IMG/VR virus record: IMGVR_UViG_3300007177_000160
Location: 32,001 to 96,000 of that record
Direction: 5' to 3' (one strand)
DNA: 64,000 nucleotides
Source of the DNA: a virus
Positions 158 through 60,796 of this stretch are shown here, piece by piece. A model generated the notes under the pieces. It saw nothing but the letters and a program-made list of their open reading frames with translations, was not told where the DNA came from and made no database searches. Position 1 is the stretch's first letter; each line of letters begins with the position of its first letter. Both the position numbers and the translations under genes were made by a program.

Positions 158-422
158 TAAACACATAAAACTATACACAGAAGAACAAATGAGACAAGCA
201 TTCAATTGCGGTAGTTTATATTTAAGCAGGGAAGGCGATACAAATTTTCATCAGTTGATAGACAAACTAACACCCATTGAACTACCAAGTGATGAGGAGA
301 TACGAGAAGAGAGATTGTTACAATTTCCCGATTCTGAATATGCTAACAGGGCAAACGATAGACTTGCCTTTTTATGTGGAGCAAAATTCGTAATAAACAA
401 AATACAAGGAGGTAACAAATGA
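150..422 (+). CDS. small early cassette protein (paralog of 733..1002)
   Basis: Shares IKLYTEEQ, TPIELPSDEEI and GAK.V...IQGGNK with 733..1002. Confidence 0.85.
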   Translation: MSNKHIKLYTEEQMRQAFNCGSLYLSREGDTNFHQLIDKLTPIELPSDEEIREERLLQFPDSEYANRANDRLAFLCGAKFVINKIQGGNK

Positions 423-37803: not shown

Positions 37804-40800
37804 TTAACTTCCGCCTTTACAGAAATTCTTAAAGGCTTCGTTTTGTTCTGATAACTCATTAAAGGAAGCTTTGATTGCTTCTGCACGAATAGCTTCATAG
37901 TTTTCAGGAATCACATCTAAGTTGGCAGCGCTAGCTACAGTGGTCATAGACACAATAGGTTTGGCATCTCGCACCTCAAACATTTTTGGTAAGACTACAT
38001 TATCTCCGATTAAGTTAATGTGCTTAGCAAAAATAGTTTTTATTTGACTAGGTGTCCAACCTGCAAGCTTTATTCCTATTTCAGTTACTAAAAACTCTAA
38101 TTCAGGATTTTGACGTGCTGTTTCAAGCATAGCTACTATAGAATTTTCTACTACAGATAGACTTACGCTGCGTTTGTTGCCTATGCGTACTACTTGCTCA
38201 CCTTGATTATTAGTGTCGACCTGTGCATACTTTGTAATTACACCAAAAGATTTTCCTTGTTGGCCTTCCATAAGTTGATTTACGACACCGTACTCAGCCC
38301 ACATACCTCTAGTGCCTTTATCATACACCGTGTAGTTTGCTTGTGCATTGCCAAACATTGCATATCCAGCCCCACCTGCTCCATGATGGCCCGCAGTATT
38401 AGCACCAAATACAAATACTTGATTAGGCTCTAACTTAGTAATTTCTTTTGGAGTGTATTTACGTTGTTTAATTGCTTCTTGTCTAACAGGACTAATTGGC
38501 ATATTTGCAGTTAGAGGCATTACTCTACGCATTGTTATAGTAACTCTGTAGGAACCTGGCTCATAAGTCTTGCCATCAATTGCAGTAGTTAATTCAGGCA
38601 GAAAACTGTCTTGGGGTTTAGGAAAAGTTCTATGGAATACTTGTCTATTTACTCCATTTACTCCAAAAACATAAGCACTTCCAGCTTGAAGACTGAGCAT
38701 CTTAGGAGTTTCATTTCTAAACTCAATAGAAAAGTTACCTGTACCTCCAAGATTAATTCCTATCACAGGATAATTAACTGCAGATAAACTTTCATCAACG
38801 TCGTTATGAGAACTTATAAAACTATCTGCCTCGTATAAATTAATAATAGCACCGTCATAATGCGTCATATCAACTCCAGACGCTTTCTGCATTAACTCGC
38901 GGAATCTAGGACTAATAGGAGCTAAAGGTTGATTATTTATTGAGGTATTATAGTAACCGTATTTAGTTTTATTCGCGGGATTAATAGGATCAGGAATATT
39001 AATGGCCTGTTTATCAGGATTATTGGATTTATAATCCCATCTTAATCCTAATCCAATCATCTTACTAGCAGATTTACCTTTGTTTGTTTTAGCTGCTTGG
39101 CTCTCTAGATAAGGTTTTAAATAATTAAATAATTCTAATTGTTCTTCTTTTGTAAGAGCACCTTGATTTAAGTAAATACCTTCACTTACTTTCTCGCCTT
39201 TTAGTCCAATATTAGCTTGTTGTGTAGTATTAATTTGAGATATTTCTTCACCCTTAAACGTAGGAGTAATAGAATCACGGAACAAATCGTAATCTTTAAA
39301 GTAAAGTAGGTCTTTGTTGGTTCCGTATTTACCTCGTAACTCTGGGTGGTTAGCTAAGAATCTATCCAAGAACTTAGAGATAAAAGTATTGCTTCCTGTT
39401 AATAAAGAGGAAAGTTTATCTTGTAGTATATCGTTTACTACATCAGTGTAGTCTGCTGCATCAGTAACTAAGTATTCGGCTGCTTCTTTAGTAACTTCTT
39501 TTGTTTCTTGTTGAGTTACGAACTGATAAACGATGTCACTTACCTGATCGAATGTGTTGTTCATCTCTTCAGTAAAGTTTTCGATGATACTTGACATACG
39601 AGTTGTGTAGATTGACTCAGGGATATAAGGCAAATAAGAATCGTATTTCTTATTAAGCTGAGATCCTATAATCCCTGCGTAACCATAAGCCAAGAAGAAA
39701 GATTGCATATCTCTTTGAAGTTCTGCGTCCTCTTCGTTATCTGGATTTAAATTAGGATGTGACCAATTTAAACCAGACTCAAACTCTTCACGTAAGATAT
39801 TTACAGAATCTTCTGCATCTACGCTAGAGAATCCTGTGCGGATAAAGGCTGAGCTTTCTTCGGTAGCAAAAGATACTCCGTCGAAGATTAAATTGTCTGA
39901 AGCAATTTTACGCTCAAACAAACGAGCTTTTAGATTCTCATAAATAGCTACGATGTTTCCTGGATTTCTTTTATCCAACAAAGATTCTATCTCAGCAACT
40001 TGTGGTACATTGTTTCTGAACAATGCATACAACAAATCATTCTTGAATATACGAGAAAACTGGTCGTAGTTTAATTCAGGATTAGCTTTCTTAACAGCAG
40101 AGTATGCAGTAGTGATTAGTGTTCCTAACTTGCTACTAGCAGATATTGGGAATATTTTCTCAAACGAGTTAAAGATTTCTTCTTGAATCTGGAAAGGAGA
40201 AACAACACTCTCACTAATTACTCTCTTTACTCCGTCTTCGTTAAAGAACTTTTCTTTAATCAATAGGCGCAACTCATTCGCTCCCTTACGGAAAGCTTCA
40301 AAGTTCTGTGGGGAGAAAGTATCAAAGTCTGTATTAGATGAAAGAGTAAATAATTTTGACTGCTGGTCTTTAACACTCAAGAAACTAACGAATCTAATAA
40401 GATTACCATAACTTGTAGTATCATTTAATACTATTGATGGATTTTCTTCAATGATATCAGCAACTAATGCTTTTAGTTTAGATAGTTTAAAGTTACCAAA
40501 GTTGCCTATAGATTTTGAAAGTAACTCTACTTCAGGTAAAGTTTCATAGTTTTCATTGCTCCAGGCTGTTGACTTTTCATAAATATCACTAAGTATGCTT
40601 TGTATAAATTCAGAGTCACTCATACGAGCATTACCTCTACCATAGGTAATAATACTGCTATTTGACGGTTTAGTTTCTCCAGCTGCTGTATAATTTAAGT
40701 TTACTAACTTAACAATATCAGCAAAACTAGAACCTACTCCGACCATGTAGTTAGTCACGGGGTTGATTCGCACGTTTAAGTTAATCCAAGCAACTTGGTC

Positions 40801-54104: not shown

Positions 54105-57011
54105 TTAATTATTCTTTTTTACTTTCTTATACAACTGTCCGCCTGTTTTTATATAACTACCTAACTTAGAAGACTTTTTAGTTTTAGGTGCTGCCGCCTC
54201 GGTTACGGGAGCAGTGGTAGTTAAATCCTGGGGGTTAAGGGTTGTATTAACTAAAGGAGTTCTTTGGTTGTAAATAGGATTAGCTACAGGAGTCCAAGTT
54301 CTTGTATTAGCGTCGTAAGAATACGAAGGCATAAAGTTTTTAGAGTACAGCTCTTTTAGTGCCTCGTCTTGTTCGTACTGGGCTCTGCTTTCTACTAGAT
54401 TAGTCAGTGCGGCTTGTTTAGCCTCAGATTGTTTAGCTTTAGCTGTAGCGTATAACTGATTGTAAGTTCTATCAAACAATTCTGCATTAGCCATTTGGGT
54501 TTGCATATCTGCCTGGAAATTAGTTACATCTGCTTTCCAGCGGCCCTCAGCATCATAGTTTTGTTTTGTTTGGTATGCTTTATTCTTAGCATCTAGTGCC
54601 ATAGCATAAGCCATATTAGGATCAGCACCAGCACGCAAAGCTGAAACTTGCATATTATCTACATCTTGTAATTGGCTTTGGATATTCAAAGTCTGAGGTC
54701 TGATATAAGGTGCCTCAATTTCAGGCACTGCATAAGGGAAAATTTCTTGAGACTGTGCAAGTGCATAGGCTCCAGGAACTGCCTGCATTAAATCATAAGG
54801 CTCTCTTTCGTAAGTACCAAACTTTGGTTTAACCATTGCAGGAACTTCCCCTGGAGTAGGCTGTGTAAATTCTTCAGCTACAATTTCTTGTTCGTCATAT
54901 ACACTAGGTACAGTAGACTTAGCGTATTGACCTGCAGTAGTGTTTGTGTACGCAGCATCAATAGGACTAATTTGACGATTACCTGCGATTACACCTGGCT
55001 CGTCAGTAACCCCACGTTGTCCAATATCAAAGTATTGGATTTTCTGAGATAATTCAGGGCTTAATTGATTGTTAGTCCTTGCATCAATTAAGTCACGATA
55101 ACCTAAATAAGTAGCCTGTTGTAAAGCAGCAGTCTTTGGGTCTTCCGCTAGAGGAATACCTGCGGCTTTAAATTCAGCAGCTAGTCTTTTATTAGTTACT
55201 GAATTAGGATCATTAGGATCTCCTATTTGACTTAAATCTATATTACGAGCCTTAAGGGCCAAGTTACGTTTGTTTAATTCTAAGAAGTTTTTAACTATCT
55301 CCTCATCTTTCATATTATCTATGTCAGAAAGTTGACCATAAGCTTTTGAGGTCTTTCCTTTCTTACCTGTGTAGTAAGCTTGGTTTTTAGCAGCGGCTCT
55401 TGTTCTTTCTACTAGAGCTTTTCTTACTTCAGGATCCGATAATTGTTGTTCTAGATAAGCGTATTCATTTGCAGTAGCTTGGTCGCCTGCAAAAGTAGTT
55501 CCTAAGTCTGTGCCTTTATATTGAGGTAAAGCAGAACGTTGTCCAGTAACCTTAACTAAATTACCCTTATCGTTACGGTAGTATTCGCCTACCTTAGCTT
55601 CACCTTTAGGTTTAATTTTAGATTCAGGGACTACTAATTGTTTTCTACGTTTATTATCTCCTAAGTCTAAAATTTGGTAAGTGTTACCTTCAGAGTCGAC
55701 TTCAGTTCCTAAAAGTTTATAACTCTGTCCACCTCCCTGCATGTTGGAAAGAATCTTAGCTTGTACATATCCAGGAAGTGCTTTAAATCCAGGATTGTTA
55801 GTGCCACCATCTTTCATCTGTGACATAGGCTCGCCAGTTGAGTTACCGTTTAATAGTTGCTGCTCTTGGAATAACTTATCCAAAACAGCTTCATTTTTAG
55901 CTTTCATGATAGCGGCCGTGTTTTTGTCTACCTGCTTTGCAAAAGGATTATCTAAAATTTCTTGGTACTTAGTACTGTCGTATTTCTTAGCAATCTGAGC
56001 AAAAGTCTTATTAGAGTCTTTTCCTTTTGTGCCACCCGACATAAAGGTATTAAAATCAAAACCAGTTAATTCTCCACCACTTTGCATAAATGCACCAAGC
56101 TTCATCATTTTTTCTTCTGGACTAAGTTTCTGCAAGTCACCTGGTTTTAAGTGATCAGAAAACACTCGAGTTCCTTCAGGGAGATTTGTATTTGTTCCTC
56201 CCATAGATACACCGTTAACTTGATACTTGTCACTGTGACTGGGACCAGAAGCTATCTCACTAGTTCCATCAGGAAGTAGTAAGTATTCGTTATTTTCTAT
56301 TTCAACATTATTAACTCCGTACTGGGGAGTATTAGGACGAGTTGAAATTCTTGCGCCTTTTTCTGCCATAATAATTGGTTGATATTCTGTTCCACCTGAT
56401 GTAGTACGACCATACATATAGTTGTAATCATATACAGGCTTAGATTGTCTTTGTTGTATGGAACGATTAAATTCTGTTTGACGACGTAAATCATCTTTAT
56501 AGTTTAACCCAGCAGAAATGCCAGTTAATCCTAATGTAGCCCAGCTACTCCAATCAAGGGGGTTTTTAGATTTGGTGTCTTTTGTATCTTCTGTATCTTC
56601 TTCATCTCCTCCACCTAATGATTCTTCTGCAGCTATGCTAATGCCTTGAGCTTGTTTTACACTAGCTGGAGTAGATGTTTCGTACTCAGTAATATTTAAA
56701 ACATCGTCTTGAGGCAAACCTTCTAGTTTTGGTAGTGGTTGATTTTTATTAGGTACCTGATTAGGAGTAAAAAAATCTTCACCTGTAAAAGGAAAAGACT
56801 CTTTCATTTTTTTGATTTCCTTGTCTGTATATTTTTTAGGCAGACTTAATGGATTGTTTTGGAAGTACGCTTGTTGTTTAGCAAATTCTTCCTCAAATTG
56901 TTTTTGAAAATCAACGGCCTCTAAACCTTTACCTTCTAAATTGTTGGTATTAACACCTGCATTTTGCATGTATTTTTTACCAAACTTTTTATATAAGGAG
57001 TGCCTTAACAT
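54105..57011 (-). CDS. virion cargo protein with MxxGG linkers
   Basis: EIENNE..GPSH..GG..LPEGTRVFSD block; MQSGG, MKDGG, MQGGG and IKTGG. Confidence 0.75.
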   Translation of the reverse strand: MLRHSLYKKFGKKYMQNAGVNTNNLEGKGLEAVDFQKQFEEEFAKQQAYFQNNPLSLPKKYTDKEIKKMKESFPFTGEDFFTPNQVPNKNQPLPKLEGLPQDDVLNITEYETSTPASVKQAQGISIAAEESLGGGDEEDTEDTKDTKSKNPLDWSSWATLGLTGISAGLNYKDDLRRQTEFNRSIQQRQSKPVYDYNYMYGRTTSGGTEYQPIIMAEKGARISTRPNTPQYGVNNVEIENNEYLLLPDGTSEIASGPSHSDKYQVNGVSMGGTNTNLPEGTRVFSDHLKPGDLQKLSPEEKMMKLGAFMQSGGELTGFDFNTFMSGGTKGKDSNKTFAQIAKKYDSTKYQEILDNPFAKQVDKNTAAIMKAKNEAVLDKLFQEQQLLNGNSTGEPMSQMKDGGTNNPGFKALPGYVQAKILSNMQGGGQSYKLLGTEVDSEGNTYQILDLGDNKRRKQLVVPESKIKPKGEAKVGEYYRNDKGNLVKVTGQRSALPQYKGTDLGTTFAGDQATANEYAYLEQQLSDPEVRKALVERTRAAAKNQAYYTGKKGKTSKAYGQLSDIDNMKDEEIVKNFLELNKRNLALKARNIDLSQIGDPNDPNSVTNKRLAAEFKAAGIPLAEDPKTAALQQATYLGYRDLIDARTNNQLSPELSQKIQYFDIGQRGVTDEPGVIAGNRQISPIDAAYTNTTAGQYAKSTVPSVYDEQEIVAEEFTQPTPGEVPAMVKPKFGTYEREPYDLMQAVPGAYALAQSQEIFPYAVPEIEAPYIRPQTLNIQSQLQDVDNMQVSALRAGADPNMAYAMALDAKNKAYQTKQNYDAEGRWKADVTNFQADMQTQMANAELFDRTYNQLYATAKAKQSEAKQAALTNLVESRAQYEQDEALKELYSKNFMPSYSYDANTRTWTPVANPIYNQRTPLVNTTLNPQDLTTTAPVTEAAAPKTKKSSKLGSYIKTGGQLYKKVKKNN

Positions 57012-57068
57012 TAGATTAATTTTTTATGTTATAACTTTAATAATGAAAGTTAATAATTACACTAATTA

Positions 57069-57098
57069 CAAATATAATTTATTAACTAAAAAAAGCAA
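57069..57098 (-). promoter_or_regulatory. Bacteroidota promoter TTG-N19-TATATTTG overlapping a terminator
   Basis: caaatata 57069-57076 and caa 57096-57098. Confidence 0.7.
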
Positions 57099-57115
57099 GG
57101 GATTATTTCCCTTGC
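57088..57115 (-). terminator. intrinsic terminator
   Basis: GCAAGGGA-AATAA-TCCCTTGC-T7 on the minus strand. Confidence 0.85.
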
Positions 57116-57252
57116 CCTCTATATGCTTTTTGATAGTTCTTACTCTGCTTTAACTTAGAAGATTTAGTCTTAGCGTGAATGCCTGGTCTGCTTACTTTGG
57201 GTTTGTCTTTAAATGCAGACGAAACACTAGTGGATTTTGCTTTAGTTGCCAT
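57103..57252 (-). CDS. 49-aa basic protein, not in the ORF track
   Basis: MATKAKSTSVSSAFKDKPKVSRPGIHAKTKSSKLKQSKNYQKAYRGQGK*; stop lies in the terminator loop. Confidence 0.8.
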   Translation of the reverse strand: MATKAKSTSVSSAFKDKPKVSRPGIHAKTKSSKLKQSKNYQKAYRGQGK

Positions 57253-57274
57253 AGTATTAATTTTAAAAGTTAAT

Positions 57275-57817
57275 TTACCATTTTACTTTGTTAGCGACAC
57301 TTATACACAAAGAAACAAATTCTTCTTGTGTGTATTGTTGTTTGCACATATTTACCATCTTATGTACCCATTGAAGATTTCCTTCAATATATCCTTTAGA
57401 TGAGTCTATTCTATCTAATGATGCTGTGTTTTTATTTACTTGCATTGCGTCAATATCCCAGCCTGTTAATGCACATTTATAATCTTGTTCGATAAGCAAG
57501 TCAGCTAAATACTCTGCCGTTACTTGCCAAGTTATATTTCTAAGAGCTGCTTGTATCCTATACTTATCACAAAAAGAATATCTTAAAACTCCTTTAACCC
57601 ATCCTTTATGTTGGTTATTTTCAGGTCGAGAGTTGCTACAAGCTTTACATTCTTTACCTGCATTGTAAGAATTAATAGCATAGTTTCTACGTAAGTAAGA
57701 TTGTAATTCTCCGCAATTAGGGCATTTTTTGTACCAACGTTTATCTGTCCCTAAATAAACTTCGTTAGGTAAATCTAGAGCGTCTGACATAACATTAAAG
57801 GTATAAATAAAATCCAC
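57275..57817 (-). mobile_element. free-standing HNH-type (His-Me finger) homing endonuclease
   Basis: CPNC/CKAC zinc finger; KCALTG...SLDRIDSSKGY...NLQWV...N..K. Confidence 0.8.
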
Positions 57818-58392
57818 TTAATTTTGTTGGCCCAGTACGCTGCAGAAGATTTTCCTTTTGCAATATTCTTTGCGTGACGTGCCTTAAATGCCTTGTTACG
57901 TGCAGATCCATCAGGAGATCCTGACACACCTTTCTGACCAAAACGAATTAATTTATAGTTACCATTAACTTTTGTTACAACTGCGTGACTCTTGTTACCA
58001 CTAGTAGTTCTCTTTGGTTTATCTACTCCAGAAAATCCCATCTTCTTATATCTATCGGGGAAGCCTCCGACTTTACCACCACTAGCCATATAACTTTGAT
58101 ATAAGCTGCCTCCCTTTTTGAATTTATATCCGTACTTAGAAGCATCTTGTCTGGCCTCTTGTATGTTGCCATTATTAGCTGCAACAAATCTAGCCTTAGC
58201 CACAGGAGTAGGCATCTTACCTCCGCTCTCCATCTGCATACCATACTTAGCTTTTCTCCAAGTACCGCCTTTAGACTTATAATATTTAGCAGCCCAGCCA
58301 TTAGCATAAGCTGAAGGATACACATCAAACTTTTGTCTAGCAAGAGATTTTGCTCTAGACCACAAACTAGGATTATTAGGTTTATTTGCCAT
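57775..58392 (-). CDS. basic modular virion protein
   Basis: YPSAYANGW..K.YK..GG.W module and IRFGQKG..F.ARH..AAYWA module joined by MESGG/FKKGG/MASGG. Confidence 0.8.
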   Translation of the reverse strand: MANKPNNPSLWSRAKSLARQKFDVYPSAYANGWAAKYYKSKGGTWRKAKYGMQMESGGKMPTPVAKARFVAANNGNIQEARQDASKYGYKFKKGGSLYQSYMASGGKVGGFPDRYKKMGFSGVDKPKRTTSGNKSHAVVTKVNGNYKLIRFGQKGVSGSPDGSARNKAFKARHAKNIAKGKSSAAYWANKIKWILFIPLMLCQTL

Positions 58393-58394
58393 TG

Positions 58395-59918
58395 TTATTT
58401 TCTTTTATGATTGTAAGGTATTCTTTGTGAAGATGTTTTAGTTGCTTTAAATCTTGCTTTTTCTTGACTAGACATCTCAGAACTAGTCTTAGGGGTTTTA
58501 CTGCTTATTCTGCGAGAAGGACGACAAGCAGGATACGCTCTATTTTCACCCTCTTGACGACCACATGGTTTACCTGATTTTACGTCTACCCACTTTTCAG
58601 CAAACCATCTATCAAGTCCTCCATGATTTCCGCCTGATTTATATTTTTTATAAAGCGACGGAGTAGATGCTATTACAGTACCATTAACTCCTGGAATAGA
58701 CATGCCTCCCATTTGCATTACTCGGGAAGCTTCTAAAAAATTATCGAGATTGTAGTCTACATCTTCTTCTTCAAAGTCTTCAACCATCTTTTTTGCAATC
58801 TGCTTTCTATTATCCTTATCCTTAACTTGTCTTAAAATACCAGCAATACCTTCTACCATTTCTCTATCGTCATCGTCTTCTTCCTCTTCCTCTATTTTGC
58901 CTCCTACTTTCATATTAGGAACATAATCAGACATCTTAAATCTGATTGGGTCTGCTAACATGTTGTACTTAGCAGTACGTAAAGCAGAAGCATTTTCTGC
59001 ATCTTGGACTGTATTGTACTTACCCATGTGCAGTCCAGTCTTATAGTAGTTAGCAACAGCTTCGTCTTCTGTAAGCTGTCTGCCTTGTACTACTGTAGGA
59101 ATAAGAACTTCTTTACTATTATCGTTAATTCCGATTTTATACTCAGAACGCATACCACCAAACTCATCTTTATATGATGGTCTATTTATATCTGGTAAAA
59201 GATAGTTACCTTCTTTAGGAGCCTTCATTTGGTCGTAGGGACCTACAGCAAACTTGCCGCCACCTTGCATAATTGGTCTAGGTCTAGGTGCAACATAAGT
59301 AGACTCACGTTGCGGAGTTCTTTGAGTGTTTAAATAAGTACTAGTGTTATAAATTGTTCTTGTTTTGTCGACAGGTTTTGTAAAACTATTTATTACATTA
59401 GACCCTCGATTTAAACTTCGCGAAGTAGCTGCTAGTCCTCTAGCAGTATTTCGTGCGCCTGCATTTGCTGCATATCTAGCTAAAGACATTGCTCCCTTAG
59501 CGGCTCCGCCTGTTAAAATATTTGCGGTATTTAATCCTACTCCCCACAAATCTCCTTGAACTGCGTCATTTACTAATCCTACTCCAGAAGCGTATATACC
59601 AGTAGGACCTGGAATATAAGATGCAAGATCTAATAACATTTCCCCACCACTCTGCATGCGTTTTTCAAACACCTGCTTATCATTTGGAAAATGGTATTCT
59701 TTACCTGGCTGCATTACTTTAACTTCACCAGACTGCACTCCTTGTCCTATAATCGGTTCTTTAAAATAATCTTCAGAACCATCAGGACCTTTCATAGTAA
59801 TGCGATTTGATGGAACAATTACGTCTTTATCTTGAAACCACATCCCTGTTTGACTGACAGGGACGGGCTTCAAGTTTTGCTTTAGTTGTAGTAAGTAAGA
59901 AGCTAAGCGTTTAGACAT
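58395..59918 (-). CDS. modular polyprotein-like virion protein
   Basis: Six unrelated segments separated by MQSGG, MQGGG, MKVGG, MQMGG and YKSGG. Confidence 0.8.
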   Translation of the reverse strand: MSKRLASYLLQLKQNLKPVPVSQTGMWFQDKDVIVPSNRITMKGPDGSEDYFKEPIIGQGVQSGEVKVMQPGKEYHFPNDKQVFEKRMQSGGEMLLDLASYIPGPTGIYASGVGLVNDAVQGDLWGVGLNTANILTGGAAKGAMSLARYAANAGARNTARGLAATSRSLNRGSNVINSFTKPVDKTRTIYNTSTYLNTQRTPQRESTYVAPRPRPIMQGGGKFAVGPYDQMKAPKEGNYLLPDINRPSYKDEFGGMRSEYKIGINDNSKEVLIPTVVQGRQLTEDEAVANYYKTGLHMGKYNTVQDAENASALRTAKYNMLADPIRFKMSDYVPNMKVGGKIEEEEEDDDDREMVEGIAGILRQVKDKDNRKQIAKKMVEDFEEEDVDYNLDNFLEASRVMQMGGMSIPGVNGTVIASTPSLYKKYKSGGNHGGLDRWFAEKWVDVKSGKPCGRQEGENRAYPACRPSRRISSKTPKTSSEMSSQEKARFKATKTSSQRIPYNHKRK

Positions 59919-59923
59919 GCGGA

Positions 59924-60796
59924 TTATCTAATTTTGATTGGAGAAATAGGTTTACTGCTATTTCTAATATAGGAAGATAAAGTGGCTTTCTTTACAGGAG
60001 TAGTTTTTTTCGCAGAAGTTGTGGGAGCCGCAGGTTGATTTCCTGACACAGGCATACGACGAAGATCTCCTACTGCTTTATCAAAACCTTTATTGTTTTG
60101 AGGTACTGCATTTAAATAAGTAGAAAGAGAAGGACGACTAGTAGTGGGCATCATATTTATGGGAACACTAAACTTAGGCTCAGGAGTTTTCATCCAAGAA
60201 GCAGTGTTTGCTTTTGAAGGGGCTGTAGAACTTGTTTTAGCGTTCTTGACATACATCTCGTAGGCCTTTTGTGTTTTAGGGCCCCAAGATCCATCTTCCG
60301 CTAAACCAGCTCCATACTTTTCGTTAAGCATCTTTTGATATGCTTTTACTCTTTCTTTTTCTTGTTGTTTGCCTAGTTCTTTTTCAGCAGAAGCAAGCAC
60401 TTGACGAGCTTGAGTCATATTAGGATCTAATAGTTCTACAGCATTGTCTAATGGACTAATGTCCATCATAGCAGAACTCTGCACCATTTCATCAGGCTCA
60501 CTCATCATGCGATCTGGTCCCATTGGGTCTTTAAACTCCATACCACCTTGGCCCTTACGCATACGAGAAAGTGTCTTAGCTAAGTTAGCCCTCTTAACAG
60601 TAGTAGAAGAATAGTCTTCTTTATTAGCAAGTACTTTGTCTCTAAATGCAGGAACAGACATTCCAGCAGATTGTGCTTGTTTTGTAAATGAACCTGGATT
60701 TTTAATAGCAGACTGTATCCATTTACCGCCAGACTTCATTTTCATTTTACCTCCACATTCCATGCAGGTAGAATAAGATTTTTGTAAGCGTCCCAT
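59924..60796 (-). CDS. modular protein with peptidoglycan-binding-like domain
   Basis: VKAYQKMLN..G.GLAEDGSWGPKT; MECGG and MKSGG linkers. Confidence 0.75.
   Translation of the reverse strand: MGRLQKSYSTCMECGGKMKMKSGGKWIQSAIKNPGSFTKQAQSAGMSVPAFRDKVLANKEDYSSTTVKRANLAKTLSRMRKGQGGMEFKDPMGPDRMMSEPDEMVQSSAMMDISPLDNAVELLDPNMTQARQVLASAEKELGKQQEKERVKAYQKMLNEKYGAGLAEDGSWGPKTQKAYEMYVKNAKTSSTAPSKANTASWMKTPEPKFSVPINMMPTTSRPSLSTYLNAVPQNNKGFDKAVGDLRRMPVSGNQPAAPTTSAKKTTPVKKATLSSYIRNSSKPISPIKIR

Follow-up and report, generated by a model that had tools for sequence, protein, structure and literature searches.

A short peptide, composed of methionine or another large hydrophobic residue, two variable residues and Gly-Gly (phi-x-x-G-G), recurs in the products of four neighbouring genes, g290, g507, g205 and g968, of an uncultured freshwater crAss-like phage. 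The DNA analysed, referred to here as the window, comprises 64,000 nucleotides (bases 32,001–96,000) of the complete 114,265 bp virus record IMGVR_UViG_3300007177_000160 from IMG/VR, which has direct terminal repeats; its gene order agrees with the assignment as a crAss-like phage. The motif is confined to these four putative cargo genes, and protein modules are gained, lost and reordered at it among related phages. We favour the view, to which we would give about half of our credence, that the peptide serves as an uncut joint and as a loading or docking handle, and that it would descend from the leaders of small genes that became fused. It appears to be an undescribed recurring feature, as no account of the motif, of cleavage or of Gly-Gly in Crassvirales cargo was found in the searchable literature, a body of text that mostly does not cover subscription journals.

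The initial annotation listed 14 copies of the motif by the low end of each 15-nucleotide stretch on the minus strand, and every one of them was found (table 1). Three weaker copies, ILTGG in g507 and VSMGG and FMSGG in g968, can be added. The four genes, which hold 1970 residues (5.6% of the total), account for all 11 occurrences of MxxGG in the 119 open reading frames (ORFs) called in the complete genome; the other 33,228 residues have none (Fisher p = 1.6e-14), so the enrichment over the rest of the proteome that had been put forward as a check is borne out. Numbering back from the second glycine (P1), methionine occupies P5 in 11 of 27 Gly-Gly sites in the four genes versus 0 of 131 elsewhere in the genome. 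When the four proteins were shuffled, they contained a mean of 0.45 MxxGG copies and none of 20,000 shuffles reached 11. The two glycines are encoded differently from copy to copy (GGA GGT, GGC GGT, GGT GGG and others), which confirms that the motif is conserved, and selected, at the level of protein rather than codons.

These properties make it extremely improbable that the motif reflects chance, composition or a repeat maintained in the DNA, for instance for recombination or as an internal site of ribosome binding. GGAGG is one possible coding of Gly-Gly, and methionine is found at P1' or P2' in approximately 8% of copies each, but the codons vary freely with no nucleotide pattern retained, the enrichment is far above compositional expectation and the motif persists in proteins that are only 25–45% identical. 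A GGAGG ribosome-binding site or DNA repeat was rejected on the basis of the codon variation. The initial annotation also drew attention to the end of the virion RNA polymerase (vRNAP), FCKGGS. This ending exists but is not a conserved copy of the motif; the related proteins end with a conserved cysteine instead of phi-x-x-GG, which rules it out as a conserved tag. Throughout the clade, the virion-polymerase-like proteins have this cysteine a few residues from the C-terminus (...AGSCKIN, ...NPPPC and ...NFCKGGS; L089–L121, window 37804–37830), where it may act as a disulfide anchor.

Related loci were gathered with three anchors: L001 and L002 were found with g968, eight contigs (L010–L017) with the Dps-like gene and 54 (L069–L122) with a profile of the 621-residue protein g621. 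The Dps-like gene was a poor anchor, as only 8 of its 57 loci had the cargo layout and the others were from unrelated phages. All of these related contigs share the gene order and carry the motif in the same four genes, while it is almost absent from the genes of the relatives for the muzzle, Dps-like, basic 50-residue, C2-position and polymerase proteins. The capsid protein is 81–98% identical across the clade, the cargo proteins 23–47%. Judged by these comparisons, the cargo block is a hypervariable, fast-changing and cassette-like island in an otherwise conserved structural module.

The changes take place at the motif. The 92-residue protein of L002 corresponds to the 338-residue protein of L001 minus everything between the first and third motifs. 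The MSIPGVNG module, which follows MQMGG inside g507, is the start of a gene (MFVPGVNG...) in L001 and L002, and the acidic, winged-helix-like module that precedes it in g507 is protein-terminal in both of those loci and lacks the motif (the L001 protein ends KSKVKK). A 20-residue peptide, INNPGF.ALPGYVQAKI..N, has the motif on both sides and lies in g968 here and in a g205-like protein in L013. The g205-like proteins combine two kinds of N-terminal and two kinds of C-terminal module, exchanged independently around a constant 32-residue core. The proposal that interchangeable modules have been shuffled, with the motif joining them, is therefore upheld by gains, losses and reorderings in relatives. 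By eye, modules resembling cell-wall enzymes can be seen in relatives, with LysM-like and lytic-transglycosylase-like stretches between seams in L011 (11286–12815), and a YkuD-like H...GC stretch between seams in L012 (10386–12062).

Breaks in BLAST homology cluster on motifs at eight places in the window proteins: residues 91–94, 221–222, 325–339 and approximately 400 of g507, 53–54 and 90–95 of g205, and 397–407 and 428–432 of g968. Among 153 non-redundant related cargo proteins, 18% of breaks lie within 5 residues of a motif versus 7% for random positions, a 2.7-fold excess in which the individual breaks are not independent. The segments between motifs have isoelectric points (pI) from 4.1 to 11.7. 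The claim that the motif marks borders between unlike modules is thus supported by the coincidence of break clusters and by the range of pI, but does not hold throughout, since several breaks in g968 (153–160, 504–506, 652–732 and 901–917) are away from any motif.

The anatomy of the peptide was examined in 304 distinct copies. P5 is M in 61%, F in 18%, Y in 10%, I in 4%, L in 4% and V in 3%, with Q, K, A or E at P4 and K, E, T or N at P1'. P4 is hydrophobic in 7% of copies. Where P5 is M, F or Y (245 copies), hydrophobic residues are most frequent at P17, P13, P9 and P5, forming a helical stripe, with further maxima at P2' (59%) and P6'; the maxima of basic residues are at P10, P7 and P6, and neither proline nor glycine is ever found at P1'. 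The motif closes a weakly amphipathic basic helix. In AlphaFold models, which are of low confidence and were used for helix ends only, the helices end at the methionine and the Gly-Gly lies in low-confidence linkers (mean predicted local distance difference test score (pLDDT) 50 for g968 and 43 for g205). Motifs can also stand close together: conserved spacers between two motifs are as short as 1–6 residues, and tandem copies 1–3 residues apart are themselves conserved (MLLGG-Y-MEEGG and MECGG-KMK-MKSGG).

Four unrelated cargo proteins share a type of leader, M-x-x-S/R-L-[YFK]-x-x-[YF]...phi-x-x-GG, of 10–20 residues; examples are MLRHSLYKKFGKKYQVGG, MKSSLFEHYKKKYAAGG, MNNSSLKDMYYAKKGMEMKKGG and MNRLKKSYSTCMSCGG. 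At the other end, some cargo proteins have a motif followed by a basic C-terminal tail of 9–30 residues. The residue at P5 has changed across one clade, L113/L119, where F or Y is found in 16 of 18 seams ([FY]-[QK]-x-G-G) versus 27% elsewhere (p = 1e-7).

Modules also occur alone, as small genes in other phages, which answers a check proposed in the initial annotation. PHROG families of 50–96 residues match single modules, and the family ends coincide with motifs. For DUF5872 (PF19197), residues 423–495 of g507 match profile positions 42–110 with 56 bits (cut-off 27.5), and residues 5–52 of g205 match positions 1–48 with 19 bits, below the cut-off, so that the family appears to be split over two genes. 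In the Prochlorococcus podovirus P-SCSP2, both DUF5872 halves and the RRKS[FY]CAR module are separate small genes between the scaffold and capsid genes; the phrog_7595 module is a lone gene in roseophage CRP-5, and the first DUF5872 half forms the end of a cyanomyovirus protein. The seam peptide is missing from the ends of all these homologues. DUF5872 apparently occurs in giant viruses too, the one paper that names the family being about an algal virus. The likeness of g507 residues 236–312 to an internal virion protein of epsilon15-like phages fits a role in ejection. At the nucleotide level, single modules (window 57775–58392 and 58395–58700) are 70–77% identical over 130–210 bases to small genes of L003 (P-SCSP2), L004 (CRP-5) and other very different marine phages, among them a T7-like cyanopodovirus, roseophages and a cyanomyovirus. 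The sequences point to recent horizontal spread of small basic module genes.

The closest studied counterpart of this region is in the Bacteroides phage crAss001. On the minus strand of the window, the gene for a giant muzzle-like structural protein (phrog_37948) is followed by that for a 126-residue Dps-like protein (DUF5856) and then by g290, g507, g205 and g968, with genes for an HNH endonuclease and a 49-residue basic protein interspersed; beyond these lie g621, which encodes the C2-position protein, and the gene for a giant vRNAP of 4798 residues with an AlkB-type domain near its end. This order parallels gp44, gp45, gp46 and gp47–50 of crAss001, in which gp45 and gp46 are cargo proteins C1 and C2 and gp47–50 are parts of the virion RNA polymerase (PMC10172136). 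Like gp45 and gp46, the motif genes lie in the interval from muzzle to virion RNA polymerase, with g968 placed between muzzle and C2/virion RNA polymerase as in the crAss001 cargo-1 family, and a basic leader and basic tail are shared features. The differences are that the cargo block here has four extra genes of small modules, that the crAss001 motif is A-[FY]-G-G where ours is M-x-x-G-G, and that published work on crAss001 cargo does not mention it (PMC10172136). No detectable sequence similarity links the proteins themselves: g968 does not match gp45 (BLASTP best E 3.0; hhalign of a 16-sequence profile, probability 0.4%), g968 and 15 homologues have no match in Pfam, g968 has none among PDB sequences by phmmer, and g621 has no detectable similarity to crAss001 gp46. 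Foldseek with the poor AlphaFold model of g968 (mean pLDDT 50) gave no match at E ≤ 0.001.

The seams of gp45 (SAYGG, AFAEGGG, KAFGG, AYCGG, NAFGG and FAYGG) bracket both of its virion-resolved segments, residues 214–245 in the tail barrel and 425–552 on the portal (Bayfield et al. 2023, PMC10172136; PDB 7QOG, 7QOI, 7QOJ, 7QOL and 8CKB). In the deposited sequence, the portal-bound segment begins AFGGW (the numbering of the paper is possibly off by one, with no effect here), so that this seam is in an ordered domain and intact in the virion. We also used the matrix-assisted laser desorption/ionization (MALDI) peak lists for gel bands 1–10 of crAss001 as a peptide-mass fingerprint (Shkoporov et al. 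2018, PMC6235969, supplementary file 14). The bands resolve to gp44, gp50 + gp47, gp49 (+ gp44), weakly gp20, gp26 + gp22, gp22 + gp25, gp25 and gp23. In this weak fingerprint gp45 never has more than 4 peaks, which is at chance level, although the portal, present in the same copy number, is weakly seen. The two top bands (>300 kDa) hold peptides of the 156 kDa muzzle protein gp44, which suggests multimers that are SDS (sodium dodecyl sulfate)-resistant or cross-linked.

In the reading we favour, the four genes would encode particle-borne cargo (ejection) proteins built like beads on a string. Each joint, leader end or tail start would bear the final turn of an amphipathic, basic helix with the sequence Met/Phe/Tyr-[Q/K/A/E]-x-Gly-Gly, and after it a residue other than proline and then a hydrophobic one. 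The peptide would stop one module and provide a flexible hinge, so that each small module could fold and unfold by itself and go singly through portal and tail channel. Its methionine or aromatic side chain would be a handle that a shared partner in the virion recognizes as the cargo is loaded or docked. Small genes, at first separate and later fused, would have contributed their leaders as the internal seams, an origin that would explain why modules are gained, lost and reordered exactly there. The motif, its restriction to the cargo genes, the exchange of modules at it, the common leaders and the change of P5 in one clade are observed; packaging of the proteins, uncut seams and reading by a partner are inferred. 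That P5 is methionine or an aromatic residue so much more often than Leu, Ile or Val, each one base change from ATG, and that it changed jointly in one clade, suggests that something reads the peptide; a plain hinge would not need so strong a choice. The common leaders speak for a part in loading, and terminal modules that do without the peptide suggest that internal copies act as joints. The initial annotation had offered a capsid-loading tag as one possible function, and a leader ending in phi-x-x-GG on four unrelated cargo proteins would fit that idea. When residues 40–125 of g205 were modelled in complex with the major capsid protein and the scaffold-like ORF116, the prediction scored 0.10 (mark 0.32), which speaks neither for nor against binding.

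Several points weigh against this account. The partner of the peptide is hypothetical, and packaging of the four proteins is deduced only from the position of their genes. The absence of proline at P1' and the strict Gly-Gly also fit a protease site, and the very short conserved spacers between motifs, together with the short leaders and tails, would fit removable propeptides. The uncut seam is from a distant phage with a differing motif, and gp45 was not detected at its full-length position in the 2018 gel, weak though that fingerprint is.

The initial annotation had inferred that the motifs are cleavage sites, capsid-loading tags or both. Polyprotein processing, in which a phage or host protease would cut after Gly-Gly, remove the leaders and free approximately 15 small peptides or domains in the particle or after injection, is in our view unlikely. 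It would account for the strict Gly-Gly, the specific large hydrophobic residue upstream and the residues excluded from P1', and for short N-terminal leaders ending in GG, reminiscent of T4 targeting sequences or double-glycine leaders. Free release would also allow the same module to be terminal without the motif or internal with it, and conserved peptides of 20 and 32 residues are flanked by motifs on both sides. In crAss001, parts of gp45 are found in two compartments, and no band in the peak lists at approximately 91 kDa contained it. On the other side, conserved tandem motifs are odd for cutting sites, the hydrophobic residue is at P5 rather than P4, so that the consensus patterns of adenain, PLpro and C39 do not fit, and in the model the gp45 seam at 425–428 belongs to the domain after it. 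No prohead protease has been described in crAss-like phages, and neither of the crAss001 virion papers mentions cleavage.

The search for a protease that the initial annotation suggested yielded no protease family in the genome. It combined PHROG scans of 42 ORFs (41 in the minus-strand structural block and one adjacent plus-strand ORF), Pfam scans of 36 replication-block ORFs and of two of the four giant proteins, and a six-frame search of the whole genome with models for C39, C48, C5, C57, S78, S77, ClpP and S49. No peptidase was present in the 78 ORFs scanned with PHROG or Pfam, in the two giant proteins or in the six-frame search with the eight families. C5, C48 and C57 (PF00770, PF02902 and PF03290) had no match at E ≤ 1 in six frames of the complete genome, which also lacked any match to prohead-type proteases (PF03420, PF04586, PF00574 and PF01343) or to the C39 peptidase (PF03412). 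With no protease found, the hydrophobic residue misplaced and the comparable crAss001 seam intact, cleavage after Gly-Gly is unsupported. A compound scheme, in which the leader would bring each module into the procapsid before an unrecognized phage or host protease cuts after Gly-Gly, strikes us as decidedly unlikely. If it were true, the particle would hold an exchangeable set of approximately 15 small basic, acidic, membrane-active and cell-wall-binding peptides, amounting to adenovirus-like core maturation in a tailed phage, and the presence of gp45 parts in both head and tail would be explained.

Alternatively, the motif could be a purely local structural signal, a helix stop (a C-cap with glycine in the left-handed position and a hydrophobic staple) and hinge that was copied along with the modules and has no reading partner. 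By the general rules of helix C-capping, the peptide has the features of the Schellman/alpha-L type, with glycine after the helix end and hydrophobic residues approximately three positions before and one or two after. The pattern phi-x-x-G-G-x-phi, the upstream periodicity of a helix and the scarcity of proline and glycine from P7 to P3 agree with this, as do the AlphaFold helices that end at the motif and the terminal modules that lack it. Yet a generic cap would use Leu, Ile and Val freely, and each is found in only 3–4% of copies against 61% for methionine; one clade switched P5 together at many seams in several proteins; and the motif also lies 5–20 residues from the N-terminus, with no module before it. 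We therefore regard a local signal as an improbable explanation by itself.

The motif can be set beside several known systems. The internal proteins of phage T4 have targeting leaders that end L/I-x-E and are removed by the prohead protease gp21 of family S77. As in T4, unrelated internal proteins here share a short N-terminal leader that would direct entry into the head; the differences are that no S77/S78 protease was found and that the peptide recurs inside proteins. Adenain processes the core and capsid precursors of adenovirus and needs a hydrophobic residue at P4, (M/I/L)-X-G-G; pS273R of African swine fever virus and the Ulp1-like enzymes are related Gly-Gly proteases. The likeness lies in a Gly-Gly site preceded by a hydrophobic residue and in a capsid that holds small basic peptides along with the DNA, whereas here the hydrophobic residue is at P5, cleavage is hypothetical, and no C5, C48 or C57 peptidase was detected. 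Double-glycine leaders, cut by the C39 domains of bacteriocin exporters, have hydrophobic residues at −4, −7, −12 and −15. They too are amphipathic helical leaders of 15–25 residues ending in Gly-Gly, but the stripe here is at −5, −9, −13 and −17, most copies are internal and the phage has no detected C39. Finally, the cargo-loading peptides of encapsulins are mostly single C-terminal tags. The resemblance is to a short hydrophobic-plus-glycine peptide that would dock cargo inside an HK97-fold shell, capsid binding being hypothetical in our case.

Table 1. Motif copies, cargo genes and their modules, with positions in the window.
Feature	Position	Strand	Description
g290, cargo-region protein	59924..60796	-	Leader with CxxC and tandem motifs MECGG, MKSGG; phrog_20603 module at residues 25-81
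MECGG	60749..60763	-	g290 residues 12-16
MKSGG	60725..60739	-	g290 residues 20-24, immediately N-terminal of phrog_20603 module
g290 C-terminal parts			Weak peptidoglycan-binding/endolysin-like stretch 128-203 (phrog_2649, phrog_1224, E 0.003-0.005); Ser/Thr/Pro-rich tail
g507	58395..59918	-	Seven segments between motifs
MQSGG	59643..59657	-	g507 residues 88-92; homology breaks 91-94
g507 segment 93-138			Hydrophobic, Gly/Ala-rich
MQGGG	59256..59270	-	g507 residues 217-221; homology breaks 221-222
g507 module 236-312			Resembles part of 937-residue internal virion protein of epsilon15-like Salmonella phages (phage SPN1S)
MKVGG	58899..58913	-	g507 residues 336-340; homology breaks 325-339
g507 module 341-398	58725-58898		Acidic; weak match (E 0.025) to C-terminal winged-helix domain of archaeal RPA32
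MQMGG	58704..58718	-	g507 residues 401-405; followed by MSIPGVNG, gene-starting module in L001, L002
YKSGG	58629..58643	-	g507 residues 426-430; inside DUF5872 match (profile positions 42-110)
g507 remaining modules			Short MSIPGVNG module; C-terminal half of DUF5872 at 423-495
g205	57775..58392	-	N-terminal half of DUF5872 (5-52), 32-residue helical motif-flanked module, 6-residue spacer SLYQSY
MESGG	58219..58233	-	g205 residues 54-58
FKKGG	58108..58122	-	g205 residues 91-95
MASGG	58075..58089	-	g205 residues 102-106
g205 C-terminal parts			phrog_7595 module 114-193; 12-residue read-through tail overlapping HNH gene
g49, very basic 49-residue protein (phrog_516)	57103..57252	-	No motif; ends ...KNYQKAYRGQGK; same place in every related locus
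g968, in crAss001 cargo protein 1 position	54105..57011	-	Conserved leader MLRHSLYKKFGKK, conserved core, seams 309, 399, 424
MQSGG	56073..56087	-	g968 residues 309-313; end of predicted helix 298-310
MKDGG	55803..55817	-	g968 residues 399-403
MQGGG	55728..55742	-	g968 residues 424-428; end of predicted helix 414-426
IKTGG	54138..54152	-	g968 residues 954-958; then basic tail QLYKKVKKNN
g968 further parts			20-residue module TNNPGFKALPGYVQAKILSN between two motifs; last motif IKTGG, then 10-residue basic tail

The cargo block has other occupants. The g49 protein belongs to the same block and is possibly packaged as a DNA-binding peptide. Inside the block, the gene of an HNH endonuclease (phrog_3322, E 3e-22; window 57275–57817, minus strand) overlaps the end of g205, which continues for 12 residues (ILFIPLMLCQTL) beyond the ...KIKW end where both stand-alone and fused homologues stop; from this extension, the HNH insertion seems to have displaced the stop codon. 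In relatives (L002 and others), a gene of 206 residues, judged by eye to be of the GIY-YIG type, is found at a neighbouring junction. Homing nucleases may be drivers of module exchange at the cargo block. Elsewhere in the genome, a 394-residue protein encoded between the portal and capsid genes (L007:13848–15032, minus strand; genome 109848–111032) looks like a scaffolding protein: its N-terminal third is acidic, rich in Pro and Asp, and opens with a conserved ENLEFF, a long helical stretch occupies the middle, and the tail is basic and finishes LF..YFK.

New in this analysis are the stand-alone homologues in a T7-like cyanophage, the helical stripe, the lack of proline at P1', the four leader classes, the clade-wide change at P5, the complete-genome protease search and the gel fingerprint. 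In guts and waters, crAss-like phages rank with the most abundant phages; the protein that they inject amounts to several megadaltons, and the motif bears on the question of how this cargo is chosen, loaded and threaded out. As a mark exclusive to the leaders and joints of the cargo proteins, the peptide is a candidate for an address label or a joint. The cargo block also draws on small basic proteins that are found in cyanophages and roseophages. Should the peptide turn out to tag cargo for loading, it could offer a means of getting foreign proteins into phage particles.

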